A DNA stretch of 64,000 bases from an uncultured Candidatus Saccharibacteria bacterium (GTDB lineage: Bacteria > Patescibacteriota > Minisyncoccia > Phycocordibacterales > UBA9973): assembly GCA_964354985.1 (NCBI GenBank), contig CAYHBR010000001.1:18407-82406 (forward strand), in the 5' to 3' direction. The translations under genes were made by a program, and so were the position numbers. Each line of letters begins with the position of its first letter. Positions within the stretch are counted from its first letter, which is position 1. Below are positions 21,941 through 50,323 of the stretch, one piece after another. Below the pieces are notes generated by a model that was not told the origin of the DNA, ran no database searches, and saw only the letters and a list, made by a program, of their open reading frames with translations.

Positions 21941-21960
21941 AGGGAGAGAAATGAAGAGAG

Positions 21961-22342: not shown

Positions 22343-22370
22343 AGTCCCCGATTTAAAAAATCGAGGACTA
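22343..22370. other. Hairpin downstream of the target-1 stop (AGTCCcCGATTT-aa-AAATCGaGGACT). A second small palindrome, AGAACTgaAGTTCT, is at 22385-22398, immediately 3' of the VR
   Basis: Inverted repeats seen directly. DGR VRs are commonly followed by a stem-loop. Confidence 0.45.
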
Positions 22371-22405
22371 AGGACTAAATGCAAAGAACTGAAGTTCTGA
22401 GCATC

Positions 22406-28017: not shown

Positions 28018-31000
28018 CTATTGTACAGGAACGGGAGAATCAACTACTGGCAACGGCGGGGCAACTTCTGTAACCGTCGGCACAACTTCAGGAGGAACCT
28101 CTGTTTGTACTGCTGTTATATCTGGGACCAAACCAATGTCTGGTGTCGGTATAGTCTCAGGAACAGGAGCAACCTCTGAAGTAGTGGAATCTGCTGTTGG
28201 TATATTAACATTATTAAGAAGTGTTTGCATCTGGTCACCGGTCACGCAAACTTCAGAACCATCTGATTTTTTAACACATATTTCTTCTGTGTGTACTTTT
28301 TTAGCAAATACTTCATCAAAGTATCCGCGAATAGCAATGACACGGGCGGACACAAAGTCGGTAAGAATTTTTGTTCCAGTTGCGACTTTTGCTTCAATAA
28401 TTGAAATAGGATTTTGAGCTATCTCGGATTGAACATCAGAAATGAGAGTTACCAATCCTTCTGTTGTAGAAATATCTCCCATCAAAAGCGATTGATCTTT
28501 CATTGAATATTTACCCGGCGAATATGTATTTTTTATAAAGGCGATTACTTGACCAACACCTTCTCCGCCAAAAGAAGTAAGTGCTTGTCCGATAACCATT
28601 CCATCTTCTGTTGCTTTCATTGCGACTCCCGGAGTCGTGGAGCTAGCAAGGAAATCCCCCGGTTCAATCACACCATTTTCAACAGAAACATTCATTGGAA
28701 CGCGACCAGAGAGTGCGACTGCAACTTGTGACGAGCCTATTCTTTTTCCATCATCAAGTATAAGTCCCGGCTGAGTAGAAACAACGCCTAATACTTCTTT
28801 ATCGTAAGTATTCGTTGTTCTTGTGACGCCTGACTCAAGTGAGTGATCTATTCTGACCAATTCTCCTGGTAGCAATCCCACATCACTCGTATTGTATATT
28901 TCAGCCAAATCAGCACCGCCTGTATTTGTAGAATTCGTTACCATTAGAAAACTTCCGGCATTGACAACGGGCGATGCGGCTACCGTTGCTACGTTTTGTG
29001 CAAATTGGAATTGGAGGTTTCCAGCGGTTCCAGCTGTCGTTACATATCCATGAACAAATACGCGCTGGGTTAATACTGCCGTTGTTGCAATAGCGCAAGA
29101 AGTTCCACTGGCAATAATATTACAATATGCGGAAGAGGTAGCAGAAATAGCATTAACTCCCTCCAGATTTATTGTCGCGCCGGCTGGAGTAGTGAATGTA
29201 TATTTCAAATCAGCAGTTGCATTTGATACGTTAGTATTAATACTTGCCTGAACATAATAAGTTGTATTTGCAGCCATAGCAAAAACTAATTCCGGATCAT
29301 TTAGAAAGACTGTCGAATTTGAAGTAGCCGTTGTCGGAGAAGCTTTTACTATATATTTACTGCCATCAGTATCGCAATTCTTCCAGGCTCCATTTTCATA
29401 ACAACGGAATTTATTTGAAGTAGTATTGTAATAAGTTCCACCATTTATACCAGCCGGATCAGCGCTCCCTGCGTCAAGCACCAATAGATCCGGTGTCGCT
29501 TTTCCAGTAATAGAACCGATTTGGATTTTACTTGATGTCGCTGTTCCGCCAGCCTCAAGAGTAATCGCGTTTGCGCCAGTTGTCGTAATTGTTCCTGCTC
29601 CTGCAAAAGTTAACCCTGTAGCTGATGTGCCAATAGTATCTATCGAGAGTACGCCGGTTAGTGCACCGCCTGTTGTGAGATTGAGTCCTGTTGAGGCAAT
29701 TGCCAAAGTATCGGAAGTAGAGCCCAACACAATAGTGTCAGTAGATGCCCCGTTTGTACCAATATTGATTGCGTTGTTTCCGCTACCAGTACCGATATTA
29801 ATTGTTTTTGAATCGTTGCCGTTTCCAATATTTACAGTTCCTGTTGTTCCAGAATCTAATGTCACTGAGCCTGTTGTGTCAGATTTTATGGAAACCACAC
29901 CGCCAGTACTAGCAAGCAATGTAATTCCGCCAGAACCAGAATATATATTGACAGTAGTTCCATCTGTAATATTACCAATTGTCACAGTTTTTCCAGAAGC
30001 ACCTGTTCCGATATTTACCGCACCAGTAGTTCCTGAGTCAACAGTTATATCGGAAGTTGTCGTTGAAGAAATTGTTCCCGCACTAGCAAAAGTTAGACCG
30101 GTTGCTGAAGCTCCGATTGTGTCGATAGAGGAGACACCAGTTATGGCGCCCGCACTAGAAACATTTAAACCAGAGGAAGTAACGACAAATGTCCCAGTTG
30201 CATTTCCAATAGCTGTATTTGATGATCCGGTTGTATTTATACTTGCCGTTCCACCAGAGACAGTAATGCCGGCGGACCCTATCAACAAGCCTGCGGAAGT
30301 AATTGTTCCTGACCCAGTTGAAGAAATATTTCCGGAAGTTGAAATAGCGCCAATTGAAGAGACGGAAGCAACTCCAGTTAGTGCGCCCGCGCTCGAAACA
30401 TTTAACCCGGAAGATAATAATGAGAACGTATCATCAGCTCCGTTACCAATGACTATTGTATTTACAGCGACACCATCACCAATGTGAATTGTTTTTCCAC
30501 TTGTTCCTGTACCAAGATTAACCGCACCCGTAGAACCAGAGTCAAGATTGAGAGCACCTGTTGTTCCTGAGGTTATTGAAAGAGCTGAGCCAGAAGCTGA
30601 AGTAATAGCGAGAGTGCTTCCGCCAGCGAGAGTTGTTGCACCTGTGCCTGTCAGTGTTGCGCTTCCTGCAGAAACTCCGAAACGAGTACTACCGCCGGTA
30701 ATAAAGTTTAAACCTTGAGCGTCTGTGGTTCCGAGAGAAGCAGAAGTTCCGAAAGCATTGCCCGACTGAACAAAAGCAAAAGAGTTAATTGTTGTTGCAG
30801 TGGTTGGAGTACATCCTAGACGCCATCTAGTAGCACCGGAATCGTACTGTGTACAGAAAGTTGTACCCGCTGGAATAATAACATCGGAACTAGTTCCAGT
30901 GATAATTCTATTTCCGGCAGTGGAGCTTGCAGACTCATTGCTTATCGTCAGATTGAAAGATGACGCATTCATAAACCGAATATACAAACCATCTACACCG

Positions 31001-34000
31001 CCTGCTATTCCAGTAAATGTTGCAGTATCAGTGCCTGTATAACGGATTAAACCACCCGAAGCTAACACAATATTATTTTGCACGCCTGTTGTTGCATAGT
31101 CAGTTCCTTTTGGTGTAATAAAATTGCCAGCAAAAGTTGAATTTCCGTTTACTGTTAAATTTCCGCCAGCAGTAATTAGTCCGCTTCCTGTAGTTATTGG
31201 TCTATTTGTTGTTGTATTAATACCGAGAGTGCCTGCACCAGTCATATTTAGGATCGAATCGTCCGCGACGAAAGTAAGGGCATTCGCATTATTAGTCATA
31301 ATCCCAGATCCAGTCGTAAAAGTATGACCTCCGGTAATAGCAACATCACCACCCAAATTTATTCCACCAGAACCACTATTTATATTTATAGCAGTTGATG
31401 TAGTAACATTTCCAATAGTAATATTTTTTGCATTTGCATTTGTTCCAATATTTATTGCACCAGTAGTTCCTGAATCTAAAGTTAGGATTCCAGTTGTTCC
31501 CGTAGAAACACTAAGCGAAGAACCATTGCCCGATGAAAGACTGGTAGTCCCCGCTCCAGATAAAGTAAGTGTTCCACCGGAAGACATACTCAAATTTCCT
31601 GCACCACTATCGGTGATACTTAAATTTTTCCCTGCCAAGTCTATCGTGCTATTTGCATCAACAGTCATCGAGTCAGATAGTTCACTAAAATCAAGAGCGT
31701 CGGTTAGACTTGAAGCAATTGATGACCATTTTATCCCTGTAGCTTGGGTAGAATCAGTGGTCAAAACAAAACCATTTGTAACACCAACAGGCAGTCTTGT
31801 TGAACTATTTACTCCGTTTCCAATAATTAAGTCACCTTTTGTCGTCACCGGAGAAAGTGCACTGAATGCAGAAGCAACTGTTGTTTGCCCGGTCCCACCC
31901 TGAGCAACACCCACTGTTCCGGTTGAAGTTAGATTTTTTGAAGCATCAGTAAATACAACTTTTGAAGCAGTAAGACTTGGGAGACTTACTGTACTACCGA
32001 GACTTATTGTCCCCGCACCTGAAATATTAAAATCTCCAGAAGCTAGAGCAAAAGAAATCGGGGTACTACTTGCGGTAGTGATTGTTGCATTGTTATTGTA
32101 AGCGCCTTGCATTGTGCTTATACCACAATCAGCCCAAGCACCTTGCACATAACAACGGAAAATACCGAGAGAATTGTTGTAATACATACTTCCGTTTGTA
32201 CCACCAACTGGGTCGCCGGTATCTGATTTTACATCAAGAGAAAATAAATCTGGAGTGACAGAACCGGCTCCGCCTGTTCCAATCTGAACTTTTCCTGTTC
32301 CTGTCCCAGCAGATTGCAATGACAATGTTCCGGTGCTTGTTCCCCACGTCGAAGCAGCGCCACCAGTCAAAGTCAAAGCTCCGCCTGAAGTAAAAGAAGA
32401 AGCAGATGTTGGAGTAAGATTTACTGCACCAGTTCCTGTTGCGGTGAAGTTTCCTGAAGAAAGTAAGATTGAAAGATCCGATGAAGACGTTGTAGTAATA
32501 GTTGAATTACTTACATATGCTTGTTGTAATGTAACAGCACTGGCAACAGAAGCACCGCAATCCTGCCATCCACCACCTTCATAACATCTAAAAGAATCAC
32601 GGGCGGCATTAAAATACATATCACCGTTATCACCAGTTGGGTCACCAGTTCCACTTGCGATACTTTTTTGATCTAAAGAAAATAAATCTGGAGTAGCAGA
32701 TGGTGCATCGTCGGCTCCAACATGCACGATACCTGTAGCTGAGCCATTTACACTTATAACCAAATCACCCGTACTCGTACCCCATGTCGAAGCAGCGCCA
32801 CCAGTCAAAGTCAAAGCTCCGCCTGAAGTAAAAGAAGAAGCAGATGTTGGGGTAAGGCTTACCGCACCAGCTCCTGAGGCAGTGAAGTTGCCTGAAGTTA
32901 ATACCAAACCTACATCAACCGCACCGGCAGTTGTAATAGTTCCTCCGCTATTATATGCACTTTGTAGTGATGTCGAGCCACCTGTTGTATCGCAGTCAGA
33001 CCAAGAACCATTTGTGTAACATCTAAATTTATTGGAATTTAGATTGTAATACATACTTCCGTTTGTGCCTTCGGCTGGATCTCCTGAATCTGATTTAACA
33101 TCGAGAGACAATAAATCCGGAGTAGTTGACCCTGCTCCGCCAACACCTATTTTAATAACACCAGTTGCGCCTCCGCCGGCTGACTGGAAAGTGATATTCC
33201 CTGCTGTTGTACTTAAACTCGAAGCAGCTCCTCCAACAAAAGTTAGTCCACTACTAGAAGTTATGCCAATAGCTCCAGCTGAACTATTTCCAATATTAAC
33301 AGCACCAGAAGATGTGCCTGTATTTATATTTGTTGCAAAATTACTACTAGCATTTATATTCGCTACTGCCCCAACCGCAGAAAGTCCCGCTGAAGCAGTA
33401 AAAAGTCCAGCCGAAGTCATTGTTCCAGTAGCTGTTGTAAAAATATTTCCTGAAGTTGTTAAATTGTCTCCCGCAGTTAAGGGCGATATTGTCGTGCCAA
33501 CTCTTTGAAATTTACTAGTGTTTGGACTCCAAGATAATCCTCCTGTGCCGTCAGTAATCAAGGCTTCCCCTAGTGCTCCGTCGGCGCTTGGCAATGTGTA
33601 TGTTGTTGAACCGGCAGTTGCAGGAGGAGCAAAACCAACATAGCCTGAAGTAGCGCCGGACAATCTAAGTTCGCCTTTTACATCAAGTGCTGAGCCTGGA
33701 ACTGCTTTTCCGATTCCCACTAAAGGATTTCCAAGACCGTCATCCATTATTCGCATTCTTTCTGAAGATGAGTCTGTTCCACTTGTAAAAAAAACAAGAG
33801 AAGTCCCTGTATCATTTGTTCCAATTACTAAATCACCGCCAAGTCCTCCAACTCCTCTCGAAACCAAGTAGGAATCATTTTTACCAGCTGGCGACCAACT
33901 AGCATCCGTAAAACCAGAAGAATTTATTCCCAAATCAACATACCCGCTTGTTTCACTTCCATTGTCTGCAGTTGCAACAATGTCTGAAGAAGCATTTGTG

Positions 34001-37000
34001 CCAGCATTACTGTTCTTAATGTTTAATTGTAAATAATTATTAACATCACCATATCCGCCGATTATATTGTATGAGGTACTTCCTGAAGGCATCACAACTT
34101 TCAAACGCTCTGGACTAATTGGATCAAAGATATCAGAACCGATCGCAAGATTTCCATTATTATCAATTATAAATGGAGATGTATCACTCGATGAATCATC
34201 TACTCGAAAACTATTTCCATTTCCCAAATTTGAAACAAATAACGGCATTGAAGCAGACGAAGCTAATGTTGTTGCTTTAACTATTGATGCCGTGCTATTT
34301 GCAGTCGATGCGATATTTTCACCAAAAGTAATTCCAGACTGACCGCTAGTTGCAAGTGACCAATTCCACACTTGTCCCAAATCCCCATTGTTGATTGTGT
34401 TTGTTGCAAGTGCTTCTGTTAGAGACGAAAGATGTGTTGCTCCATTAAATCCCCCGGAACAAGTAAGGACTCCAACTGTTCCATCTACACTACATCCAGT
34501 TGAGCCATAACCACCCATAAGATTGAGAGTACCAGATGCGCCCGGAGCACCAATATTTACGGTTGTTGCTGATCCTCCAATATTTAAAGCTGTGGCATTT
34601 GTATTAAAAAGATTTCCTGTTGCGCTTGTAGTAGAAATCGTTCCGCCATTTATTGCGGAGTTTGAAGCAGTGGTAAATAAACCGCTTGAATTGACTGACC
34701 AATTTGCAGAATTTAAAGAAAGAGAATCAAGACCACTTCCCAATGAAATAGTATCCGCAAGAGTATCATCTGTCCCTACATTAATAACGTTACCAGCATT
34801 TCCTGTTCCAATAGATATTGTTTTTCCACTTGTTCCTGTACCAAGATTAACCGCACCCGTAGAACCAGAGTCAAGATTGAGAGCACCTGTTGTTCCTGAG
34901 GTTATTGAAAGAGCTGAGCCAGAAGCTGAAGTAATAGCGAGAGTGCTTCCGCCAGCGAGAGTTGTTGCACCTGTGCCTGTCAGTGTTGCGCTTCCTGCAG
35001 AAACTCCGAAACGAGTACTACCGCCGGTAATAAAGTTTAAACCTTGAGCGTCTGTGGTTCCGAGAGAAGCGGTTGTTCCGAATTGATTGCCACCTTGTAT
35101 ATAAGCAAACCCCGAAAGTGTTCCGATTGTCGCAGGTAATACCACAATGCGCCAGCGACTTATAGCTGAATCATATTCAAGACCGATAGACACTCCTGCC
35201 GGAACAGTTTGATTTAAACTAGATGCCGTTACAATGCGATTGATATCCGTAGAACTTAAACTCTCGTTAACAAGTGTTACTGCAAAACTTGAAGCATTCA
35301 TTATACGGATTTGTTTTCCATCTGCTCCCCCAGTTATTCCCGTGAAAGTAGCTACGCCCAGTCCTGTATAACGGAAAAGATAGCCGGATCCAAAATCAAC
35401 ATCATTATGCGAACCTGTTGTTGCATAATCAGTTCCTTTTGGTGTGATAAAATCTCCTGAAACAGTCAAGTTGCCACTTAGAGTTTTTGCACCCGATATT
35501 GTCTGCGTTCCGCTTGTTACAAGTCCTCTGTTTGTTGCAGAGGCATCTGGAATATTCAATGTAAGAGTTCCTCCGAGCGAAGTCGGTGAACCTGAAATAT
35601 TTGCGTCTGTTCCGGATGTTCCTAGTGTTAAACCAATAGTTGAATTTACTAATTTATTATTTGCAATCGTCCCAGTAACAATATCGCCATTGACGATAGA
35701 GCCGGCGAGATTGAGTTTACTATATGCAACTGATGCACTTGCTGAAAGATCTCCGTCTACAATCGTTCCGTCTAATATTTTGCCTGTAGTAATTGCCCCA
35801 GTGCCAATAGTAATAGCACCAGCATTACTGACAGTTGCGTCGCCCGATGCTGTAACAAAAGTTGGAACACCAGAAACATTGGCGACCAGAAACTGACCCG
35901 AAGAACCTGCTGTAGTGGCAGAAAGAGCGCTCGTTCCATTGCCATAAAGTAAACCTTTTGTTGTAAATGTCCCTGATCCAGTTCCACCTCGCGCGACAGA
36001 AAGATTTCCGGAAGTAATAGCTCCGACATCGAGGGATGTTGTGCCGGCAGCGGTCAATCTACCTTGTGCGTCCACTGTAAAAGTTGGGACCAAAGTACTA
36101 GAACCATAGTCACCTAAAGTGACAGCAGTATTATTTAAAGCGAAAGTAATATTCCCCGAACCAATAAGCCTGTTCGTAAGTGTTCCACTCAATCCAACTC
36201 CAGTGCCTGCGAGCAGGTCACCGTTACCTGTATTTAACAAGCAAGTTGGACAATCAATATTTCCAGTAGTGGCTGAATAACTTATTGGTCCAACACCAGC
36301 TATTGAATTCCTCGCACGGGCATTTGTAAAATATTGATTTGTCCCTTCAGAAATATTACTTGTTGTTAAGCTTACCGCGCCAGTTAGGCCATTTACACTA
36401 GCAACATTTGTTCCCTGTTGAATACGATCCCAAGTTGCACCGTTGTTTAAAATCCAATCCCCAACCGCCCAAGTTGAATTGCCATCTATAGATGTGCTTC
36501 CTGCGACACTTACAATAAATAAATCTCCTGCAATATCAGGTAGTCCATTTTCTAGCCCACCACTAGCAAGAGGCGGTGTATTGGTGTCTGCATCCCAAAC
36601 TCCATCATATTTTAATGAACCAGTAATTGAGCTAGGTAATAATGAAGTATTTATCTTACCACCAACATCAAGAAGAGATATCCAAGAAAGATCGCCCGCA
36701 AGAACTGCGTGGTTGTCAGCAGTACCTGTCCCTAAGTCCGCAGGAACGATTGAACGAAAAGTGGGATTAGTGGAAACGCCATCAGTCGGTCCAAGTAAAA
36801 AATTGTTAGCAGCAACAATTTCTGAAAATACACCGCCACCTTTACATTCAAAGATAGTGCCGTTCCAGCTAAGCCTTTCGTTACTAGCACAAGTTGGGAC
36901 ATTTACTTTTAAGTCTGTCCCTGAAAAAATTAAACCATTACCGATGCTTATTTCTGAAGTATTATCTGATGACCCAGTTGGATTTCCAAGCAATTTACTA

Positions 37001-37605
37001 GCGCTAACACTTGGTAGTTTTGCAAAAGTGACGCTACCATTTAGAATTTTTGAAGAAGTAATAGCATTGCTTACAATAGAAAATGCGCCGGCACTACTCA
37101 TTGAGGCATCACCCGAAACGGTAACTTGGCTCGCCAAGTTTGAACCATCGCCGACAAGTATTTTCCCTGACGACAAAGAAGGTGAGAGTTTGTTATTAAA
37201 TGTCGTCCAATCTGTAGCCGAAAGCAATCCTCTTTTTATAGAAGAGGCAGAAGGAAAATTGAAAGTGTGAATATCTGAGCCGGAAACAATATTAAAATCG
37301 GTGCCGGTTGTCCCTGTGGTAAATGTTTGAGTAGAACCACTTTGACTGTTTAGAATTAAACTGGTTGGTATTATTCCGCAACTAGGACTTCCTGCGGTAC
37401 AATCTGGCTCTAGTGTAACTCCGGGCAAATACAGGGTTGCGTTGGCTATTCGTGGAGCTATTAGACTAAGACCAAAAGTAGATAGAATTAAAATAAAAAT
37501 TCCAAACATAGAAAAAACCGATTTGCGGTTTTGGATAAACCGATAATGAACCAAGTTGGAAATGACAAATTTCTTGAAAGATTTTTCTTTCATTTGACTA
37601 CACAC
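28018..37605 (-). CDS. Giant surface protein (3195 aa): an N-terminal signal/anchor, Gly/Thr/Ser/Ala-rich repetitive beta-solenoid-like modules, a C-terminal globular region and a Pro/Thr/Val-rich tail
   Basis: One uninterrupted ORF. N-terminal hydrophobic segment (FSMFGIFILILSTFGLSLIAP). Pervasive GxT/GS repeats. Four copies of a FRCY..G.W.DC module. ~250-bp exact internal DNA repeats. Only spurious antisense ORFs overlap it. Confidence 0.85.
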   Translation of the reverse strand: MCSQMKEKSFKKFVISNLVHYRFIQNRKSVFSMFGIFILILSTFGLSLIAPRIANATLYLPGVTLEPDCTAGSPSCGIIPTSLILNSQSGSTQTFTTGTTGTDFNIVSGSDIHTFNFPSASSIKRGLLSATDWTTFNNKLSPSLSSGKILVGDGSNLASQVTVSGDASMSSAGAFSIVSNAITSSKILNGSVTFAKLPSVSASKLLGNPTGSSDNTSEISIGNGLIFSGTDLKVNVPTCASNERLSWNGTIFECKGGGVFSEIVAANNFLLGPTDGVSTNPTFRSIVPADLGTGTADNHAVLAGDLSWISLLDVGGKINTSLLPSSITGSLKYDGVWDADTNTPPLASGGLENGLPDIAGDLFIVSVAGSTSIDGNSTWAVGDWILNNGATWDRIQQGTNVASVNGLTGAVSLTTSNISEGTNQYFTNARARNSIAGVGPISYSATTGNIDCPTCLLNTGNGDLLAGTGVGLSGTLTNRLIGSGNITFALNNTAVTLGDYGSSTLVPTFTVDAQGRLTAAGTTSLDVGAITSGNLSVARGGTGSGTFTTKGLLYGNGTSALSATTAGSSGQFLVANVSGVPTFVTASGDATVSNAGAITIGTGAITTGKILDGTIVDGDLSASASVAYSKLNLAGSIVNGDIVTGTIANNKLVNSTIGLTLGTSGTDANISGSPTSLGGTLTLNIPDASATNRGLVTSGTQTISGAKTLSGNLTVSGDFITPKGTDYATTGSHNDVDFGSGYLFRYTGLGVATFTGITGGADGKQIRIMNASSFAVTLVNESLSSTDINRIVTASSLNQTVPAGVSIGLEYDSAISRWRIVVLPATIGTLSGFAYIQGGNQFGTTASLGTTDAQGLNFITGGSTRFGVSAGSATLTGTGATTLAGGSTLAITSASGSALSITSGTTGALNLDSGSTGAVNLGTGTSGKTISIGTGNAGNVINVGTDDTLADTISLGSGLDSLSLNSANWSVNSSGLFTTASNSAINGGTISTTSATGNLFNTNATALNIGGSATTVNIGAPGASGTLNLMGGYGSTGCSVDGTVGVLTCSGGFNGATHLSSLTEALATNTINNGDLGQVWNWSLATSGQSGITFGENIASTANSTASIVKATTLASSASMPLFVSNLGNGNSFRVDDSSSDTSPFIIDNNGNLAIGSDIFDPISPERLKVVMPSGSTSYNIIGGYGDVNNYLQLNIKNSNAGTNASSDIVATADNGSETSGYVDLGINSSGFTDASWSPAGKNDSYLVSRGVGGLGGDLVIGTNDTGTSLVFFTSGTDSSSERMRIMDDGLGNPLVGIGKAVPGSALDVKGELRLSGATSGYVGFAPPATAGSTTYTLPSADGALGEALITDGTGGLSWSPNTSKFQRVGTTISPLTAGDNLTTSGNIFTTATGTMTSAGLFTASAGLSAVGAVANINASSNFATNINTGTSSGAVNIGNSSAGAIGITSSSGLTFVGGAASSLSTTAGNITFQSAGGGATGVIKIGVGGAGSTTPDLLSLDVKSDSGDPAEGTNGSMYYNLNSNKFRCYTNGSWSDCDTTGGSTSLQSAYNSGGTITTAGAVDVGLVLTSGNFTASGAGAVSLTPTSASSFTSGGALTLTGGAASTWGTSTGDLVISVNGSATGIVHVGADDAPSATPDLFSLDQKSIASGTGDPTGDNGDMYFNAARDSFRCYEGGGWQDCGASVASAVTLQQAYVSNSTITTTSSSDLSILLSSGNFTATGTGAVNLTPTSASSFTSGGALTLTGGAASTWGTSTGTLSLQSAGTGTGKVQIGTGGAGSVTPDLFSLDVKSDTGDPVGGTNGSMYYNNSLGIFRCYVQGAWADCGISTMQGAYNNNATITTASSTPISFALASGDFNISGAGTISLGSTVSLPSLTASKVVFTDASKNLTSTGTVGVAQGGTGQTTVASAFSALSPVTTKGDLIIGNGVNSSTRLPVGVTNGFVLTTDSTQATGIKWSSIASSLTDALDFSELSDSMTVDANSTIDLAGKNLSITDSGAGNLSMSSGGTLTLSGAGTTSLSSGNGSSLSVSTGTTGILTLDSGTTGAINIGTNANAKNITIGNVTTSTAININSGSGGINLGGDVAITGGHTFTTGSGIMTNNANALTFVADDSILNMTGAGTLGINTTTNRPITTGSGLITAGGNLTVNGNSTFAGNFITPKGTDYATTGVQNNIVLASGGLIRYTGTDTATFTGIAGGVDGLYIRFMNASSFNLTISNESASSTAGNRIITGTSSDVIIPAGTTFCTQYDSGATRWRLGCTPTTATTINSFAFVQSGNAFGTSASLGTTDAQGLNFITGGSTRFGVSAGSATLTGTGATTLAGGSTLAITSASGSALSITSGTTGALNLDSGSTGAVNLGTGTSGKTIHIGDGVAVNTIVIGNGADDTFSLLSSGLNVSSAGALTGVASVSSIGAISTSGNISSTGSGTITSAGLLIGSAGITVSGGTASINTTGSSNTAIGNATGTFVVTSSGLNVSSAGAITGVSSIDTIGASATGLTFASAGTISSTTTSDITVDSGTTGAVNIGTGASGKTVTIGNITDGTTVNIYSGSGGITLLASTGGVVSIKSDTTGSVTLDSGTTGTVNIGNGNDSKTINIGTGSGNNAINIGTNGASTDTIVLGSTSDTLAIASTGLNLTTGGALTGVLSIDTIGTSATGLTFAGAGTITTTGANAITLEAGGTATSSKIQIGSITGKATPDLLVLDAGSADPAGINGGTYYNTTSNKFRCYENGAWKNCDTDGSKYIVKASPTTATSNSTVFLNDPELVFAMAANTTYYVQASINTNVSNATADLKYTFTTPAGATINLEGVNAISATSSAYCNIIASGTSCAIATTAVLTQRVFVHGYVTTAGTAGNLQFQFAQNVATVAASPVVNAGSFLMVTNSTNTGGADLAEIYNTSDVGLLPGELVRIDHSLESGVTRTTNTYDKEVLGVVSTQPGLILDDGKRIGSSQVAVALSGRVPMNVSVENGVIEPGDFLASSTTPGVAMKATEDGMVIGQALTSFGGEGVGQVIAFIKNTYSPGKYSMKDQSLLMGDISTTEGLVTLISDVQSEIAQNPISIIEAKVATGTKILTDFVSARVIAIRGYFDEVFAKKVHTEEICVKKSDGSEVCVTGDQMQTLLNNVNIPTADSTTSEVAPVPETIPTPDIGLVPDITAVQTEVPPEVVPTVTEVAPPLPVVDSPVPVQ
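30491..30741. repeat. ~250-bp exact intragenic direct repeat, copy 1 (copy 2 at 34820..35070)
   Basis: An identical string runs from tttttccacttgttcctgtaccaagattaaccgcacccgtag... to ...gtggttccgagagaagc at both positions. It encodes the duplicated segment ..STRFGVSAGSATLTGTGATTLAGGSTLAITSASGSALSITSGTTGALNLDSGSTGAVNLGTGTSGKT.. Confidence 0.9.
34820..35070. repeat. ~250-bp exact intragenic direct repeat, copy 2
   Basis: See copy 1. A second repeat pair (~70 bp near-exact, ~120 bp similar) lies at 32342..32460 and 32780..32898. Confidence 0.9.
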
Positions 37606-37639: not shown

Positions 37640-37647
37640 GGGGGGGG
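37640..37647. repeat. G8 homopolymer (C8 in the gene sense) about 30 nt upstream of the giant gene start
   Basis: gggtggggggggtg seen directly in an AT-rich intergenic region. Confidence 0.85.
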
Positions 37648-39522: not shown

Positions 39523-40191
39523 TTATTTCTTTAGCAATTCCTCGATTTTTGCCTTGAAAGAATCGTAGCTTGAGACACCATCTCCAAACTTTACCCCGTT
39601 TATATAGAATGTTGGGGTAGAATCTACTCCGAGTTTTTCACCATCAGCATAGTCAGCGGAAATAATAGCTGAGTACTTATTACTCTTTACTTCACTCAGA
39701 AATATTTTAGTATCAAGTCCAAGTTTTGAAGCATAACTAGTAAAAATATCTACTGCAGTATTTGAGTTACTCCACTCTGTTTGTTTTTCATATATCATGT
39801 CGTGCATTTCCCAAAACTTACCCTGCGCCGAAGCTGCCTCAGCAGCTTCGGCGCTTGAATGAGAATTTTGGTGAGCCGAGAGCGGAAAATTCCTAAATAC
39901 AAAACTCACATTTGGATTGTCTTTATAATCAGCAATGATTTTCATTACTATTGGATTTACTGCACCACATGCTGGACACTGATAGTCACCAAATTCAACG
40001 ATTTGAACTTTCGCGTTTTTTGCTCCTTCTACTCCGTTTATTCCAGCAACATGACTTCCCTCGCGGATAAGTAAACTGCCATCAACTGGCGCTGTAACCA
40101 GTGCTGGTTTTGGTTGAAATGACCAAAGCAAAATACCACCAACGATTGCGACCAAACTGACAATTAAAATAATTTTTGATTCTTTATTCAT
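39523..40191 (-). CDS. DsbA/BdbD-like thiol:disulfide oxidoreductase (thioredoxin fold, membrane-anchored)
   Basis: N-terminal TM segment and a CPAC active site (FGDYQCPACGAVNP). Confidence 0.75.
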   Translation of the reverse strand: MNKESKIILIVSLVAIVGGILLWSFQPKPALVTAPVDGSLLIREGSHVAGINGVEGAKNAKVQIVEFGDYQCPACGAVNPIVMKIIADYKDNPNVSFVFRNFPLSAHQNSHSSAEAAEAASAQGKFWEMHDMIYEKQTEWSNSNTAVDIFTSYASKLGLDTKIFLSEVKSNKYSAIISADYADGEKLGVDSTPTFYINGVKFGDGVSSYDSFKAKIEELLKK

Positions 40192-40606
40192 GATTTTGTT
40201 TTTTATAAATCACCATTAAGATAGTGATTGCTATTAGTGATAATAGTGACAACAGTGGAATCGTTAGAAAACCAAAATATTCGACGTATTTTGTCGTACA
40301 AGACACTCCTATCTTACACGGAGCAAAGGCCTCTGGTATGACTTTGTAATAAAGTAAATTTTGGTAAATAGAAACCAACAATCCAGCCACTGAAAGTGGC
40401 AAAATATATGATGCCAGTTTTTTATCTTTTAGTAAAATTCCAACTGGGATAAGCAACACAAGTGGGTAGATGGCAACCCTCTGAAACCAACAAAGGATGC
40501 ATGGCGCAAAACCAAGTACTTCACTAAAATACAAACTACCTATCAATGAAAATAAAGCTATCGTCCATGCGATATATGCGCTGTTTAGTTTAATGAATTT
40601 TTTCAT
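40184..40606 (-). CDS. DsbB/BdbC-like disulfide bond formation protein
   Basis: 140-aa polytopic membrane protein with a CILCWFQR CxxC motif. It overlaps the start of the downstream DsbA-like gene. Confidence 0.7.
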   Translation of the reverse strand: MKKFIKLNSAYIAWTIALFSLIGSLYFSEVLGFAPCILCWFQRVAIYPLVLLIPVGILLKDKKLASYILPLSVAGLLVSIYQNLLYYKVIPEAFAPCKIGVSCTTKYVEYFGFLTIPLLSLLSLIAITILMVIYKKQNHE

Positions 40607-41199: not shown

Positions 41200-41247
41200 A
41201 ACTTAACTAAATTACCATAAAACCATCGGAATTGCCACCTTGCAATG

Positions 41248-41321
41248 TGTCGGGGGAGAGAATCGGACTCTCGACCTGACGCTTATGAAGCGCCCGCTCT
41301 TACCAACTGAGCTACCCCGAC
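41248..41321 (-). tRNA. tRNA-Met (anticodon CAU). An elongator, or possibly tRNA-Ile2 (lysidine); it is not initiator-like
   Basis: GTCGGGG-TA-GCTC-AGTTGGTAA-GAGC-G-GGCGC-TTCATAA-GCGTC-AGGTC-GAGAG-TCCGATT-CTCTC-CCCCGAC-A. The G1-C72 pair and lack of GGG/CCC in the anticodon stem argue against an initiator. Confidence 0.75.
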
Positions 41322-41428: not shown

Positions 41429-41745
41429 TGCGGGGCCACGAATCGAACGTGGGTCTTAAGGTTATGCATACCGCTACAGTTTTCACTGCAATTGCTTTTT
41501 GTGGTCTGGACTATGCCTTCACCCATTTGCGCAAACCGATTGGTTATTACAAATTAGGGGTCTGCCGTCTAGTCTCTACACCTTCAATAAAATTGTTTAA
41601 CGAATTTTAAAGCTTGGCTCGGCGTTGTCATTTGTCGTACTTTCTTATAACAAGAAGATTTCACCGAATTTGACAGATATTCCACTAGCTATTACTGGCT
41701 AGTGAGCCCAATTGAGCCTTACGAGATACCTCTTCTCTACCCCGC
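41429..41745 (-). ncRNA. ssrA: tmRNA (ssrA), about 317 nt
   Basis: 5' GCGGGGT pairs with 3' GCCCCGC-A. A tRNA-like T-arm CCACG-TTCGATT-CGTGG sits at the 3' end. The length and position beside a tRNA cluster fit. The internal tag reading frame was not resolved. Confidence 0.65.
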
Positions 41746-41870: not shown

Positions 41871-43706
41871 ATGAATGAAGCACAAAACTCACAGAACTCG
41901 GAGGAGAAATTGCACGCTCTCCGCCACACCCTCGCTCACCTTTTGGGGGCATCGGTACTGAAACTTTACCCTGGTTCCAAGCTCACTCTCGGACCTTCTG
42001 TCGATAATGGTTTCTACTACGACATAGATATGACAAGCGCCGACGGCGGCAAAAGCGGTACTGTTGGCGGTGGTGGTAATGGGGGCACTGGTTTCAAAAT
42101 CGGCGATGCTGACATGCCAAAAATCGAAGCTGTCATGCGTGAACTTTTGCCAACATGGACGAAAATGGAACGCCGTGAAGTTTCAGCAGACGAAGCAAAA
42201 GAGATCTTTGCTGGCAATGAATTTAAACACGAACTGATTGAAGAATACTCCGCAACTGGTTTGACAACATACACATCCGGCGCTGGTAGCGCGCACGAAT
42301 TTACTGACCTTTGCCGTGGTGGTCATCTCGAAAATCCAGCCAAAGAAATCGATCCGAATGGCTTCAAACTCGACCGCATCGCTGGCGCGTACTGGCGTGG
42401 TAGTGAGAAAAATAAAATGCTCACTCGTATATACGGTCTAGCATTTGAAGATGAAGAAAAACTTAAGGAATATTTGGCGATGCGCATTGAAGCTGAAAAA
42501 AATGATCATCGCAAACTCGGGGCTGAAATGGACATCTTTGCCTTCGACGACGATGTCGGTGCCGGTCTTCCACTTTGGCTGCCAAACGGTGGTGTGCTTA
42601 CAGAAGAACTAGAGAAACTCGCCAAAGAAACAGAATTCCTCGCTGGCTACGACCGTGTCAAAACTCCGCACCTCGCCAAAGAGTCGATGTATAAAACATC
42701 TGGCCATCTTCCCTACTACGAAGATTCAATGTATCCGCCAATGGAATATGATGGAGGTAAATATTATTTGCGGGCCATGAACTGTCCGCACCACCACAAA
42801 GTTTTTGACGCACGACCAAAGTCATACCGCGACTTGCCACTCCGCCTCGCTGAATACGGCACAGTTTATCGTCATGAAAAATCTGGAGAACTTTTCGGTT
42901 TGATGCGAGTGCGTTCACTTTCGATGAACGACGCACACATTTACTGCACCGAAGAACAATTTGCCGATGAATTTCGCGCGGTCAATGAAATGTATTTGAA
43001 ATATTTCAAAATTTTTGGGATAGAAAAATATGTCATGCGCCTCTCCACTCACGATCCAAAAAAACTTGGTGAAAAATATGTTGATGAACCAGAACTTTGG
43101 AAAAAAACTGAAGATATGGTGCGCAACGTTTTAATTGAATCAAATATTCCATTTATTGAAGTTCCCAACGAAGCTGCTTTTTATGGTCCTAAAATTGATG
43201 TGCAAGTTTGGAGTGCGATTGGTCGTGAGTTTACTCTTGCCACAAACCAAGTCGACTTTGCAGTTCCGGCTCGCTTTGGACTTGTTTACACAGACAAAGA
43301 CGGTACGCAAAAAACACCACTTTGCATTCACCGCGCGCCACTCGGCACACACGAACGCTTTATCGGATTCCTGATCGAACATTACGCTGGCAACTTCCCT
43401 ACTTGGCTCGCACCACTTCAAGTTGCTATTGTTCCAGTTCGCGAAAATCACACCGAAGCCGCTCGAGCACTTGCGCAAAAACTCCGCGAACAAATGATCC
43501 GCGCTGAAATCTACGATGACAGCAACAGCCTTGGTAAAAGAATCCATACAGCAAAAGCCATGCATACGCCGTACACTATTGTGCTTGGCGACAAGGAAAT
43601 CGAAAGCGGCAATCTCTCAATCGAACTTCGCAATGGTGAAAAAATGCAAACAAACGAGGCTGATTTTATTGCGAAATTGATTGAAGAAATTAAGGAGAGA
43701 AAATAA
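41871..43706 (+). CDS. thrS: Threonyl-tRNA synthetase (lacks the N-terminal TGS domain)
   Basis: Class II motifs and HRAPLGTHERFIGFLIEHYAGNFPTWLAP. The N-terminus aligns with the ThrRS editing-domain region (HTLAHLLG..GP..GFYYD). Confidence 0.9.
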   Translation: MNEAQNSQNSEEKLHALRHTLAHLLGASVLKLYPGSKLTLGPSVDNGFYYDIDMTSADGGKSGTVGGGGNGGTGFKIGDADMPKIEAVMRELLPTWTKMERREVSADEAKEIFAGNEFKHELIEEYSATGLTTYTSGAGSAHEFTDLCRGGHLENPAKEIDPNGFKLDRIAGAYWRGSEKNKMLTRIYGLAFEDEEKLKEYLAMRIEAEKNDHRKLGAEMDIFAFDDDVGAGLPLWLPNGGVLTEELEKLAKETEFLAGYDRVKTPHLAKESMYKTSGHLPYYEDSMYPPMEYDGGKYYLRAMNCPHHHKVFDARPKSYRDLPLRLAEYGTVYRHEKSGELFGLMRVRSLSMNDAHIYCTEEQFADEFRAVNEMYLKYFKIFGIEKYVMRLSTHDPKKLGEKYVDEPELWKKTEDMVRNVLIESNIPFIEVPNEAAFYGPKIDVQVWSAIGREFTLATNQVDFAVPARFGLVYTDKDGTQKTPLCIHRAPLGTHERFIGFLIEHYAGNFPTWLAPLQVAIVPVRENHTEAARALAQKLREQMIRAEIYDDSNSLGKRIHTAKAMHTPYTIVLGDKEIESGNLSIELRNGEKMQTNEADFIAKLIEEIKERK

Positions 43707-43754: not shown

Positions 43755-44240
43755 TTAATTTGCCGTTTTATATTTTGTGATATTAAATGTTGGAAAAGGT
43801 ATTCCCGAGCCAGTAACACAATTTGTTGTTGTTGGAAATGTTTCGTAAAATCCTAAAATCCACTGACCGCTCCGCACTGCAGTTTTGGATTGTTCTCTGC
43901 TATATGCACTATTTGCAGATCCTGCTTCGCTATGTAGTTGAGAATTTTCATCGAGTAAACTTTGGCTTGGAGTAATTCCTTGTTGACCAAGCAGTGCAAG
44001 GTTATCGTCACTTGCTTTTGCCCTAGATGAGGCTGATTTCATTGTTTCGTACAACTCTTTTATTTTTGCACTAAATATCGAATACGGATAAACCGGACTC
44101 ATTCCTGCGGGTTTTATTAAAATAGGTCCTGTCCCCATACAAGTAACCCCCGGTGTAAATGTTGTTAATATTCTCCCACCAAAACCTCTTGTACCCCCCC
44201 CATTGCAAATGAAGTAATCGGAATAGCAGTAATTAAGCAA
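43755..44240 (-). CDS. Secreted hypothetical protein whose N-terminus depends on a G/C homopolymer
   Basis: The ORF-track frame starts at a TTG. An upstream ATG frame encodes a textbook signal peptide MKNKIIILCLITAIPITSFA that meets the main frame inside a poly-C run (8-9 nt, about 44195-44203). I could not count the tract reliably enough to say whether the two frames are in phase. Confidence 0.5.
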   Translation of the reverse strand: MLNYCYSDYFICNGGGTRGFGGRILTTFTPGVTCMGTGPILIKPAGMSPVYPYSIFSAKIKELYETMKSASSRAKASDDNLALLGQQGITPSQSLLDENSQLHSEAGSANSAYSREQSKTAVRSGQWILGFYETFPTTTNCVTGSGIPFPTFNITKYKTAN

Positions 44241-44358
44241 AGAATTATAATTTTATTTTTCATACAATAATATTAACATATAAAAAAATCTGCAACAAAA
44301 TTTTTTTATATATTTTCAAAAATTCTTAAGACAGATCTGCTCCCATAACTATAGAAAC

Positions 44359-46523: not shown

Positions 46524-47567
46524 TTAGATGGAAATGCGAGGGATTTTAGGTGGAAATTGCTGGGTTTTTGGTCCGATTTTGGTGGGTTTTCTAAAATTAT
46601 ATATAATCGTTTGCTTAAGTCGATGAGTATTCCCATGACTAAGTAATCCAATATAAGATGTTGTAGTTGCACCTGATTGTCTCTGTCTTAAATTTCTGAA
46701 CATTCTCTTTTTGGTAGATGTCCTTGGCACTCGATGGTACGGGAAATGCACCCAACCGAGAAAATCCACACCTGAGGCAAATGTTTTTATAAATACCTTA
46801 TCAGGATGCAAGGATAGATTGAGTCTTGTCTCTAGAAATGCCGATATTTTTGGCAGAACATCTTCTAAGTATTTTTTGTCTTTATGAAGGATAACAAAAT
46901 CATCCGCATATCTGACGCAGTATGTAATTTTCAAATCTCTCTTAAGAAAGTGATCGAACTCGTTCATATAAATGTTCACTAAAAGTTGGCTCGTGAGATT
47001 ACCAAGAGGTAGTCCGACGCTGTGCCTGTCTTTTGTGTTGAAACTGCCGACAATCTCCTTGAAAAGCCGTATTATATCTTCATCTCCCATTCGGAGTTTC
47101 AAAATATCTTCCAAGATTCTGTGATCAATATTCGCAAAAAACTTTCTGATGTCGCATTTCAGCACCCACATAGTCTGCGTATGATTTTTAGAAACCTTAA
47201 GCGCATAGTTTCGAAATCTATCAAGCGCGCGGTGTGTGCCTTTGCCTCGACGACATGAGTACGAATCAAAAATAAATTTGGTGTCAAAATATGGATACAA
47301 AATCCTATAAATAGCATGGTGGAGAAGCCGATCGCGGACACTTGCCTTGTGAATGTCCCGAGGCTTTGGGTCGTTGATACGAAAAGCTTTGTACGGACCG
47401 TGACGGTATGTCTTGTCGACAAGTTCACGGTGAAGGGCAAGTATATTATCGGTTAGATGCACTGAAAATTGGGCGACATCTTTACGGTTCCGTTTTCCGC
47501 GCAGGAATTCTCGCCACGCAACAAGTAAGTTTTCCACCGAAATGATATTATTGTAGGTATGAATCAA
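46524..47567 (-). CDS. DGR reverse transcriptase (RT-2); the likely true start is the TTG at 47567, and the ORF-track N-terminal extension reads through the poly-G tract
   Basis: 348 aa, about 65% identical to RT-1. Same GLPLGNLTSQLLVNIY and YADD motifs. Homology with RT-1 begins at ..IHTYNNIISVENLL.. Confidence 0.85.
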   Translation of the reverse strand: MIHTYNNIISVENLLVAWREFLRGKRNRKDVAQFSVHLTDNILALHRELVDKTYRHGPYKAFRINDPKPRDIHKASVRDRLLHHAIYRILYPYFDTKFIFDSYSCRRGKGTHRALDRFRNYALKVSKNHTQTMWVLKCDIRKFFANIDHRILEDILKLRMGDEDIIRLFKEIVGSFNTKDRHSVGLPLGNLTSQLLVNIYMNEFDHFLKRDLKITYCVRYADDFVILHKDKKYLEDVLPKISAFLETRLNLSLHPDKVFIKTFASGVDFLGWVHFPYHRVPRTSTKKRMFRNLRQRQSGATTTSYIGLLSHGNTHRLKQTIIYNFRKPTKIGPKTQQFPPKIPRISI

Positions 47568-47577
47568 CCGACTAATA

Positions 47578-47587
47578 CCCCCCCCCC
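47578..47587. repeat. C10 homopolymer (G10 in the RT sense) about 10 nt upstream of the RT-2 start
   Basis: cccccccccc seen directly, in the same position as at RT-1. Confidence 0.9.
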
Positions 47588-47637
47588 GAATTTCGTACAG
47601 CAACGCCTCGATCCTGAGCAGGATCAAAGAGGGATAT

Positions 47638-47961
47638 TTGATTTGGGTTAGTATTGTTCCGCATATTGCTAAAGGTGCTCGCTATACGATAGGTTCACGA
47701 ATTGAGAATAAATTCCTCGACCTGCTTGAACTTTCATACATTGCTTATTTTATAGAAAAAGATAAGAAAGAGGGAAAAATCACACAATGCATTTTAATGT
47801 TGGATACACTAAAGTTTCTTGTTTCTGTTGCATGGGAGGGTAAACTGATTTCAAATGCACACTGCGAGAATGTGGCATTGAAACTCGAAGAAGTCGGCAA
47901 GATGTTTGGTGGTTGGAAGAAAAATCTCGCAAATCCCGAAAAGAAAAACCGCGATCTATAA
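47638..47961 (+). CDS. Avd-like accessory protein (four-helix bundle / 23S rRNA IVS protein family), TTG start, on the opposite strand from RT/TR/VR
   Basis: 107 aa ..IAKGARYTIGSRIENKFLDLLELSYIAYF...VALKLEEVGKMFGGWKKNL. Conserved with the locus-1 frame with synonymous third-position changes. The antisense ORF-track ORF 47745..48149 has a low-complexity, nonsense-like translation here. Confidence 0.65.
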   Translation: MIWVSIVPHIAKGARYTIGSRIENKFLDLLELSYIAYFIEKDKKEGKITQCILMLDTLKFLVSVAWEGKLISNAHCENVALKLEEVGKMFGGWKKNLANPEKKNRDL

Positions 47962-47994
47962 AAACTATAGCAGTCGCGGAAAAGAAAATAGTTT

Positions 47995-48123
47995 CGGAGA
48001 CGGAACACGAACTTGTTGTCCGGATTCCACTCATTACCCTGTTTCGCCCAATTGTTGTTCAGCCACAAACCATCACCGTCGCGTTTGAGATTGAAGACGT
48101 TCGAGTTACCGTCAGAGTCAGTA
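47995..48123 (-). repeat. DGR-2 template repeat (TR-2); the ORF-track ORF 47745..48149 is a non-coding artefact of it
   Basis: 129 bp aligning to 48498..48626. About 21 mismatches at TR adenines (plus-strand T against C/A/G in the VR) and a single non-A mismatch. Confidence 0.85.
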
Positions 48124-48481
48124 TTTGTGCGGCATGCCATCTGTGTCACTGCCGACTTAAGCGCACCATGTGCCAGAAGCCGTGCTGTATTGGTATGCGT
48201 GATCTAACCCAGTAGGCGATCCTGTTGGATCGAAATCACCCAGCGCGTCGCACCAAGTTTTTTCTTTTTAAAGACCTCTATGTAAATCCTCCGCGAAAAG
48301 CCGTAACCGTTCGCGCTCTCAATCCACACGAAGTAAATTGGTCTTGAAAAACCGTAGCCGTTCAATGAAACCAATCTAGAAATAGTATACCAAAAAAACT
48401 GAACTCGCTTCGCGAGTAAATGCCAAAGGGTCAAAGAACCCAAGAGTCAAAGAATCAGAAAAATACAAAGAAACAATTGGT

Positions 48482-50323
48482 CTAAGATTTAGACTTGCGG
48501 AGACGGAACACGAACTCGTAGCCCGGAGAACACACAAAACCCTGCGACGCCCAACTGTAGTACAGCCACAAACCAACACCGTCGCGTCCGAGAAAGAAGA
48601 CGTACGAGTCACCGTCAGAGTCAGTAATTTGCTTCATTCCAATACGCACCCATTCATTGAGGGGTTGATCTTTGTATTTGAGGCGATAATTCGGACCAGT
48701 ATCGGGTGGACATAATTCTAAACCAAGCTTTTGCGCTCGCTCAAATATTTGGTCAGTTGTGGCATTTGTCTTGAATCCAAGATCGGCGACAGTGAGGCGG
48801 ATGAGGGTGGCTTCTTCTTGATTCTTCCCTGGAATAAAGTCCGGGTTTTTCATCATGGATTTTGCGTAATCAGAAATGTTGATTTTAGCAGTCTCCATTT
48901 CGGAAATGAGCTGTTCTGCTGTCTTTCCGCCGATCACAATGTTCTCTCTGCGGATTTTCTTGTCAGGAAAAGACGTGTACACATGCTCAAGATTTTCCGG
49001 CAATTTTTGAAAGATTCCTGGCTCAAGCTGGCCAACATAGGCTTTGGTATTTTCGTCTATTTCGCTAGGTACGTGGGCAATTTGATCTTTACTGCAATCA
49101 AAAATGACGAGCATGTCTGCCTCGGTATTTCTGCCTGCGCGAAGTTCGGCAATACGCGGGTCGGTCTGGTAACCGAAACCTTCGATTGAGGAGTTTATTT
49201 CATACAAGAATATCAAATCGTCTTTATTGAACGGCTCTTCCTGTTCACGCTTCTGGTCGAGAGCAGTAAGCATTTTCATGTCATTGCTTTTCTTTCGGTA
49301 CGCATCTGCTTCACCACCAAAATCCTGGAGTTTTGTATCAAGCGCTTCCTGCATAATTGGCTCTACTCCCTGGTGCGGCAGAACACCCCGAACTTCGCCG
49401 ATTCGGTTATCGCCATCCATGCGGATGGCAAGACGAGGCTGGGTCGGCTCACCATTTGAGTCGTTCGTATAGAAAACATAGAAGTCGCCATTTTCGATTT
49501 GCGCTTCAGCAGTTGCCTGACCGGCAGTACACCAACCAGTACCCTTACCATCGAGCGAATCATATAATTTTTCAGCGGCGCCGTCTTCGCCTTGTTCATA
49601 TTTTTTCCATTCACCTTTGACTTCCTCGCGGTTCTCCATTGAAGCGGCGAGAGATTTTGAAATGAGTTCGGCGTATAAGCTCGGAAACTTTTGAGAAAAG
49701 GCTTCGCGGATCTCGGGTTCTTTGAGATTTTTATTATCCTCCTTAACTTTAAGATAAATGTCGGCGATTTGCGCCAACGGCTCACGGTAGATATCGGGGT
49801 ATGGTGCAACAGTACTATCGGTACGCTTTTTGAACTCGCCACGCTCTTTGTCGAATTGGGAAAGTTTGGTGATATTTTTCCAAACAAAGTATTTGAACCA
49901 TGCAGGATACATGGCATCGTCTGAAGTAAGGTAGTCCATCCATGAATCAAGTGATGCACGTTGATCTTCAATGGCAACATTCATCATCTGCTCGCGGACA
50001 TTTTCTGGTATTTCCTCTACCGATTGTCCTCGTTCGCGGGCAATGCGTTTCTGCAACTCAAAATATGATTCAGGAAAATTCTCCTTCTTTATGATGAACG
50101 CATCATAGATTTTATCGCGAAACATTTCGAGATTGCGTTCGCGTTTCTTTTCGTCAGGGTTGAGAAAAACATTCTCCAAACGATCCATATAAGCCTCAAT
50201 ACGCTCGGAAGGATCGTTAGGCATTTTTTCGCCAGTGTGACGTTCTTCTCGTACAACGGCTCGATTTACCTCAGGAGAAGTTTGGAGTTCTGGGCTCTTA
50301 ATGTGGAGTGGATGCTTTTCCAT
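48482..50323 (-). CDS. DGR-2 target (variable) protein, 613 aa, with a C-terminal CLec-like variable region (VR-2 at 48498..48626)
   Basis: The C-terminus ..DSDGDSYVFFLGRDGVGLWLYYSWASQGFVCSPGYEFVFRLRKSKS is encoded by VR-2. The C-terminal ~200 aa are homologous to the 207-aa DGR-1 target. Confidence 0.8.
   Translation of the reverse strand: MEKHPLHIKSPELQTSPEVNRAVVREERHTGEKMPNDPSERIEAYMDRLENVFLNPDEKKRERNLEMFRDKIYDAFIIKKENFPESYFELQKRIARERGQSVEEIPENVREQMMNVAIEDQRASLDSWMDYLTSDDAMYPAWFKYFVWKNITKLSQFDKERGEFKKRTDSTVAPYPDIYREPLAQIADIYLKVKEDNKNLKEPEIREAFSQKFPSLYAELISKSLAASMENREEVKGEWKKYEQGEDGAAEKLYDSLDGKGTGWCTAGQATAEAQIENGDFYVFYTNDSNGEPTQPRLAIRMDGDNRIGEVRGVLPHQGVEPIMQEALDTKLQDFGGEADAYRKKSNDMKMLTALDQKREQEEPFNKDDLIFLYEINSSIEGFGYQTDPRIAELRAGRNTEADMLVIFDCSKDQIAHVPSEIDENTKAYVGQLEPGIFQKLPENLEHVYTSFPDKKIRRENIVIGGKTAEQLISEMETAKINISDYAKSMMKNPDFIPGKNQEEATLIRLTVADLGFKTNATTDQIFERAQKLGLELCPPDTGPNYRLKYKDQPLNEWVRIGMKQITDSDGDSYVFFLGRDGVGLWLYYSWASQGFVCSPGYEFVFRLRKSKS

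Follow-up and report, generated by a model that had tools for sequence, protein, structure and literature searches.

A G8 tract between signal peptide and mature domain in a secreted-protein gene of a Patescibacteria bacterium: a candidate phase-variation switch in the OFF frame

We found that a run of eight G residues divides a gene for a small secreted protein in the stretch of DNA analyzed here (64,000 nucleotides; hereafter the window). The tract lies exactly where a signal peptide passes into the mature domain, and at its present length it leaves the two parts in different reading frames. By sequence comparison, homology firmly establishes a one-gene, two-frame architecture. The best reading of this architecture, which we hold tentatively, is a slippage-prone contingency gene caught OFF. 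Such a switch is of a known kind and would occur here in a lineage and a protein family where it is undescribed; the switching itself is what we infer.

The coding strand of the gene is the minus strand, and the coordinates of its parts and of other features of the window are collected in Table 1. A preliminary description of the window had noticed a poly-G tract at the junction of a signal-peptide frame and a mature frame, an ATG frame running into a homopolymer of 8–9 nt, and an ORF starting from a TTG in another phase. These observations held up: a regular-expression count settled the tract at exactly eight (G8; C8 on the plus strand), the TTG-initiated ORF lies in the −1 frame relative to the ATG-initiated one, and a profile of homologues aligns through both parts. 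The minus strand reads ...TGTTAATATTATTGT ATG AAA AAT AAA ATT ATA ATT CTT TGC TTA ATT ACT GCT and goes on ATT CCG ATT ACT TCA TTT GCA ATG GGG GGG GTA CAA ... TAT TAA. The first G of the tract is the third base of codon 21, an ATG, whereas the mature frame reads the tract as GGG GGG GG(T). At G8, translation from the ATG stops after 32 codons (giving MKNKIIILCLITAIPITSFAMGGVQEVLVGEY*), a short ORF for which a 32-aa gene is called in the ENA and NCBI annotations, and the mature domain, being in the −1 frame, lacks an export signal.

Table 1. Positions of features in the window (64,000 nucleotides); strand is given where assigned.
Feature	Position	Strand	Remarks
Homopolymer tract	44194..44201	(−)	Exactly G8 (C8 on +)
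Signal-peptide coding segment	44204..44263	(−)	20 codons, MKNKIIILCLITAIPITSFA; ATG at 44263-44261
32-codon ORF read with G8	44165..44263	(−)	MKNKIIILCLITAIPITSFA-MGGVQEVLVGEY*; stop TAA 44165-44167; product of the putative OFF state
Mature-domain frame	43755..44201	(−)	−1 relative to ATG frame; GGGTRGFGGRIL...KYKTAN, 148 codons + TAA 43755-43757
TTG-initiated ORF	43755..44240	(−)	161 aa; −1 frame relative to 32-codon ORF
Public 127-aa gene call (P0001)	43755..44138	(−)	Starts at internal ATG
Extended −10-like element TGtTAATAT	44270..44278	(−)	6 nt upstream of signal-peptide ATG; inferred
Predicted hairpin	44137-44194	(−)	Begins at last G of tract
G10 tracts	21576-21585 and 47578-47587	coding strand of RT	12-15 nt upstream of DGR RT start codons
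G8 on + (C8 on gene strand)	37640-37647	(+)	26 nt upstream of TATAAT (37612-37607)
3195-aa ORF	28018-37605		ATG at 37592
DGR1	20576-23029		Complete
DGR1 template/variable repeats	21961-22087 / 22424-22550
DGR1 target	22406-23029		207 aa
DGR2	46524-50323		Complete
bAvd	47638-47961	(+)	Avd-type four-helix-bundle gene
DGR2 template/variable repeats	47992-48126 / 48495-48629
DGR2 target	48482-50323		613 aa
DsbA-like gene	39523-40191		Near the secreted-protein gene
DsbB-like gene	40184-40606		Near the secreted-protein gene
tRNA-Met	41247-41321
Group I catalytic intron	41485-41724	(−)	Full length; Rfam, 56.9 bits (gathering score 50)
thrS	41871-43706	(+)

The two possible N-termini differ sharply in character. 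That of the ATG frame combines a basic MKNK, a hydrophobic core (maximum 11-residue Kyte–Doolittle mean of 2.92) and the residues S-F-A, and its n/h/c anatomy marks it, on sequence, as a canonical Sec signal. The first 13 codons of the TTG ORF (MLNYCYSDYFICN) are signal-peptide DNA read out of frame; they match nothing in the protein family, and this N-terminus is non-hydrophobic (Kyte–Doolittle maximum of 0.40). A stop just before the TTG closes the mature frame upstream, leaving no other start available to it. Ahead of the signal-peptide ATG lies the putative extended −10-like element, and homologous genes carry TGTATAAT or TGTACAAT 8–14 nt before their ATG; a sigma-70 scan that required a −35 element returned no promoter on the minus strand.

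When the tract length was varied in silico, G9 (+1) or G6 (−2) joined both frames into a protein of 169 or 168 aa, respectively, the G9 product being MKNKIIILCLITAIPITSFA-MGGG-TRGFGGRIL.... With G7 or G10, the frames stayed unjoined and a third short out-of-frame product resulted. The preliminary claim that a 1-nt change decides whether the protein carries its signal peptide therefore stands for the gain of one G and falls for the loss of one.

Evidence that the two frames belong together comes from the protein family. Pfam and NCBIfam searches of the fused protein gave no family, as did Pfam on all 24 family members. A word-indexed protein search with the single sequence retrieved the gene's own entries only (the 127-, 161- and 32-aa calls), and the same kind of search with the family profile retrieved only three proteins. 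When the mature frame served as query in an exhaustive HMMER search of 1.84 billion representatives, 24 proteins were recovered at E ≤ 1e-3, the gene's own entry included, with E values down to 2e-15. The 23 homologues are proteins of 114–200 aa in which a signal peptide and a short variable linker precede the conserved motifs (P/S)FGGx(V/I), PGVTCxGxGP, GPY, GxWILGxY, C and YGxS, in this order. Six columns are invariant across the family (F, G, C, G, G and C, two Cys among them), and the window gene keeps all six. An in-frame signal peptide is present in 22 of the 23 homologues and ends 4–10 residues before FGG (farther away in two long-form members); several of these signal peptides end in xFA, like that of the window gene, and the fused G9 protein places its signal peptide where the homologues have theirs. 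The window gene at G8 does not have this in-frame signal peptide, which it would have at G9 or G6.

For scoring, we built a profile from the homologues only, with the window sequence left out. The fused protein scored highest (109.2 bits), followed by the 161-aa TTG ORF (100.7 bits) and the 127-aa call (65.8 bits), the last falling about 35 bits below the 161-aa ORF. The alignment to the fused protein began at residue 5, thus running through the signal peptide, and that to the 161-aa ORF began at residue 17, at TRGFGG, three residues past the tract. As the alignment includes the signal peptide and the fused protein scores best, signal peptide and mature domain are parts of one ancestral ORF. 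Because the conserved region starts only three residues after the tract, the 127-aa database call is truncated, having lost the conserved FGG...PGVTC block with the first invariant Cys. These alignments show that the DNA from the tract to the internal ATG is coding sequence and that the frameshift has made artefacts of the public gene calls. The mature domain is predicted to form an OB-fold-like beta-barrel into which a helical hairpin of about 60 residues is inserted (model pLDDT 95.6). We conclude that the gene is genuine and encodes a small secreted protein of a previously unnamed family with a predicted OB-fold-like core.

All located family members whose contexts we examined are on CPR/Patescibacteria-type contigs, and neither a Gly run nor a homopolymer occurs at the tract position in the homologues. 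Likewise, a scan of JGI metagenomes with five family sequences found three loci, at which the genes are intact and without a homopolymer. The closest homologue, P0003 (L086, 414–908; 34% identity), has the same helical insertion and lacks a signal peptide. A second frameshifted member was sought at its locus, which has no upstream signal-peptide frame and no tract; P0003 may be a truncated remnant, or its contig may be rearranged. Other family members (in L090/L091 at 6001–12360, L095 and L093) stand at the head of same-strand clusters encoding large unannotated proteins, and the cluster of L090 ends in a weak PrgI-like match, so that the context of the family may be a surface or secretion apparatus. 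Within the window, the gene has no paralogues, and genes resembling dsbB and dsbA lie nearby.

With dnaG, rpoB/C, RNase R, SMC, gyrB and thrS on it, the window is chromosomal. Its GyrB is closest to that of a groundwater MAG (89%), with many Paceibacterota next, and on these sequence grounds the window belongs to a Patescibacteria/Paceibacterota (CPR) bacterium. The GyrB cluster has one member, the species is known from one study, and a protein search of the GTDB species representatives, in which the species itself is not represented, gave no relative. In the closest relative, gyrB and thrS converge across a gap of 120 bp that contains no gene; the secreted-protein gene is thus a lineage-specific insertion. 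A weak tblastn match in L007 was rejected as a homologue because it sits on an unrelated ORF. In the neighboring thrS product, residues ~55–75 form a Gly-rich insertion (TSADGGKSGTVGGGGNGGTGFKIGD) that is missing from the ThrRS of the closest relative (611 aa vs 595 aa in L004) and is encoded with G runs no longer than 2. A full-length group I catalytic intron is placed between tRNA-Met and thrS and may interrupt a tRNA gene uncalled by ARAGORN.

We compared the tract with the codon usage and run lengths of the window and with the run lengths of related genomes. Across 29 long ORFs (17,564 codons) of the window, Gly is encoded least often by GGG (8% of 1440 Gly codons). Runs of at least two Gly in these 29 genes never give more than five consecutive G (0/119), and for ten out of ten GGG or GGGG peptides, including a GGGG in ThrRS, the G runs in the coding sequence are 2 long. 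To write Met-Gly-Gly-Gly as ATG GGG GGG GGT thus departs strongly from the usage of this genome. The G/C runs of the window comprise eleven of length 5, one of 6, none of 7, two of 8 and two of 10, and the pattern GGGGGGGG has eight matches (in four tracts) against 0.42 expected from dinucleotide shuffles, none of 100 of which reached eight. Among 426,627 bases from 48 related Paceibacterota genomes of similar GC content (42%), there were 26 runs of 6, five of 7 and none of 8 or more. Given that the rare Gly codon is used twice in a genome that avoids G runs, the tract resembles a selected mutable tract.

The other three long tracts are non-coding and lie at the 5′ ends of genes. One is a C8 situated 48 nt upstream of the ATG of a 3195-aa ORF and just downstream of tRNA-Thr(GGT); the encoded protein has no Pfam match and is internally repetitive, and the C8 could be a promoter-region tract of a giant surface protein. 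The remaining two, both G10, lie in the divergent avd/RT intergenic regions of two diversity-generating retroelements (DGRs). Their core, TCGGGGGGGGGGTA[A/T]TA, is identical in both cassettes, and the flanks around it are only about 50% identical; the G10 may be a conserved functional DGR element or a promoter-located repeat. Since G10 is kept at equal length in two diverged cassettes, long G runs can be stably maintained in this genome; some of them may have roles other than switching, which counts against reading the G8 tract as a switch.

Both DGRs are complete; in each, the RT (RVT_1) is encoded on the minus strand, and an Avd-type four-helix-bundle gene on the plus strand diverges from it. 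Mismatches between template and variable repeats fall at template adenines in 23/24 and 15/15 cases, and the target proteins have no Pfam match. The secreted-protein gene was considered as a DGR target and rejected, as it has no repeat in common with either template repeat. Two Logan contigs from different runs (L084 and L085) stop inside the DGR2 variable repeat, at 48516 and 48515, suggesting real population heterogeneity and hence an active DGR. We also considered whether the four long tracts form a small dedicated set of contingency switches for the cell-surface repertoire, one gating export of the secreted OB-fold-like protein and the others acting from the promoter regions of the putative 3195-aa surface giant and of two active DGRs; we regard this as improbable. 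If it were true, repeat phase variation would control secreted proteins together with the on/off state of targeted hypermutation, and no earlier phase-variation system would be on record for the candidate phyla radiation.

Tract length was compared across assemblies from one study and essentially one population, all of them consensus sequences. The gene is carried by a 71.5-kb contig of ENA ERZ4201063 (33.7x), by a 2.7-kb contig of ENA ERZ4201065 (3.9x; a slightly different strain with 7 SNPs, all in thrS), and by Logan contigs of ERR3856787 and ERR3856788. Every gene-carrying contig read (L001, L002, L003, L084 and L085) has G8; a 94.6-kb NCBI MAG contig that also carries the gene is outside this count. 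L003 has no change in the 660-bp gene region against 7 SNPs in the adjacent thrS. By exact look-up among 15 billion proteins, the products of G6, G7, G9, G10 and G12 alleles were absent, whereas three G8 products were present in the same collection. The two Logan contigs reaching the G10 at 47578 match the window there, as does the one reaching the C8 at 37640, and L084 and L085 pass the tracts unbroken. Their break inside the DGR2 repeat indicates that the assembler does break at heterogeneous populations. G8 is thus the true majority allele. The lack of length polymorphism is weak negative evidence on switching, being at consensus level and from one population.

These results bear on what the preliminary description had proposed for the tract. 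It had taken a single length that keeps the signal peptide in frame as the sign of no switching; a single length was indeed observed, and it is out of frame. As for its suggestion of a textbook phase-variation switch, the structural part is supported (one gene, a tract at the junction, rare codons), and the switching itself finds no support in the assemblies, each one read being G8 and hence OFF. Its other suggestion, a homopolymer sequencing error, is unlikely because G8 recurs in no fewer than two runs and in both ENA assemblies, whose contig names are of SPAdes style.

The main rival to a contingency gene is a fixed pseudogene, in which a dispensable gene was inactivated by a G9-to-G8 deletion and is decaying, with reversion non-adaptive and at ordinary rates. 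We consider this somewhat unlikely. It would account for the G8 in all assemblies read and for the failure to find an ON allele anywhere; in addition, the gene is missing from the 120-bp gyrB–thrS gap of the closest relative and is therefore dispensable, and P0003, itself a possible remnant, also lacks a signal peptide. However, the frameshift is the only lesion in the gene, with the 148-codon mature frame open and the invariant residues intact, and an ancestral G9 made of the rarest Gly codon in a genome that avoids G runs would still need explaining. Nor does the contrast between gene and thrS in L003 point to relaxed constraint, small as these numbers are. An assembly or sequencing artefact would instead make the real tract G9 and the gene intact. 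Homopolymers are error-prone, and the assemblies may share overlapping reads of one project (ERR3856787/8, ERZ4201063/5), but two independent Logan assemblies and both ENA assemblies all show G8, the 3.9x assembly comes from a slightly different strain, and the G10 and C8 tracts are reproduced as well. The style of the contig names suggests short reads, with which all assemblies are unlikely to share a consensus error in an 8-nt run. We give this explanation very little credence, less than any other except the division into two genes discussed below.

Programmed recoding, highly improbable in our view, would make G8 functional through −1 ribosomal frameshifting on G_GGG_GGG or RNA-polymerase slippage on G8/C8. 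The heptamer has the form X_XXY_YYZ in the ATG frame, a −1 slip would yield the G9 product, the G8 length is stable across samples, and downstream of it a predicted hairpin of about 17 bp pairs codons of the FGG motif with those of the PGVTC motif (MFE of −23.6 kcal/mol for 102 nt). This hairpin starts only 0–1 nt past the tract, as against the usual 5–9 nt; its significance is marginal (z of −1.77, with 11 of 200 shuffles as good), and it corresponds to no Rfam element. All-G heptamers shift poorly in the bacteria studied. Moreover, every homologue gene inspected consists of one ORF and has no shift site, P0003 lacks an upstream signal-peptide frame, so the two-frame layout is not conserved, and there is no upstream hairpin of the kind that known slippage stimulators would require. 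If recoding occurred, a G8 population would yield a peptide across ...SFAMGGGTRGFGGR (junction FAMGGGTRGF). The least credible explanation is two separate genes, a 32-codon leader or small exported peptide followed by a cytoplasmic protein starting from TTG 44240 or ATG 44138. The public annotation (32 aa plus 127 or 161 aa) fits it, and GGGGG, a possible Shine–Dalgarno-like site, lies 11 nt before ATG 44138. Yet the family is a secreted one, with a signal peptide in nearly all homologues and two invariant Cys, the 127-aa form lacks the first of these and about 35 bits of the conserved core, and the N-terminus of the TTG frame is non-hydrophobic and matches nothing.

Under the preferred reading of a contingency gene caught OFF, slipped-strand mispairing at G8 during replication would add or remove G's, and the gene would act as a translational phase-variation switch that is OFF in most cells of every sample sequenced so far. 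With G9 or G6, the OB-fold-like protein would be exported; with G8, only a 32-aa product containing the signal peptide would be made. Because the tract is in the variable linker past the cleavage site, whole-codon changes would merely add or remove Gly. The gene shows several properties by which phase-variable genes are recognized: a tract of at least 7–8 nt in the 5′ part of the coding sequence (codons 21–24 of the fused gene), over-represented relative to composition and codon usage, whose length in silico decides between a full-length and a truncated product. A selected switch rather than decay is suggested by the rare codons of the tract, by its position in the only part of the protein where gaining or losing a Gly is harmless, by the lack of a second lesion, and by the other long tracts at the 5′ ends of surface-related genes.

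The closest analogue is the pair pilC1/pilC2 of Neisseria gonorrhoeae, in which RecA-independent frameshifts in a poly-G within the signal-peptide-coding region switch an exported protein (PMC5354566). Both cases have a signal peptide, a G run and a mature domain in the other frame. In pilC, however, switching was shown experimentally and isolate alleles differ, whereas one length (OFF) is seen here; moreover, pilC encodes a pilus tip adhesin of a proteobacterial pathogen, in contrast to a small OB-fold-like protein of a CPR bacterium. Contingency genes of Campylobacter and Helicobacter have G/C homopolymers of about 8–10 nt, both intragenic and intergenic, with bimodal lengths, and affect surface structures (PMC8355987, PMC2823697). 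The window resembles these genera, which have small AT-rich genomes, in its bimodal G/C tract lengths; unlike their tracts, whose lengths vary in cultures and strains, those of the window are identical across assemblies, and two of the four (G10) lie in DGR cassettes. In Mycobacterium tuberculosis (e.g., glpK), short coding G/C homopolymers reversibly gain or lose one base and so toggle function (10.1101/717272, PMC10334774). Those variants were found through population polymorphism and in metabolic genes, whereas here the gene encodes a secreted protein and shows one length. The on/off geometry in the signal-peptide region is also that of the Neisseria opa genes. There, CTCTT repeats in the leader-peptide coding sequence switch a surface protein on and off; opa is a multi-copy family with a pentanucleotide repeat and demonstrated switching, as opposed to the homopolymer found here. 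The literature searched contained no report of phase-variable genes in Patescibacteria.

Whether or not the tract switches, public annotations split one secreted protein into hypothetical proteins of 32 aa and 127 or 161 aa, and the analysis defines a previously unnamed family whose members are small, secreted and disulfide-containing, with a core predicted to be OB-fold-like. Should there be no switching, the gene is a frameshifted accessory gene of the ordinary kind. A tract that did switch would make it the first contingency locus to be reported from the candidate phyla radiation. For CPR bacteria a life attached to other cells is assumed, and a secreted protein turned on and off stochastically would bear on how they interact with their hosts.
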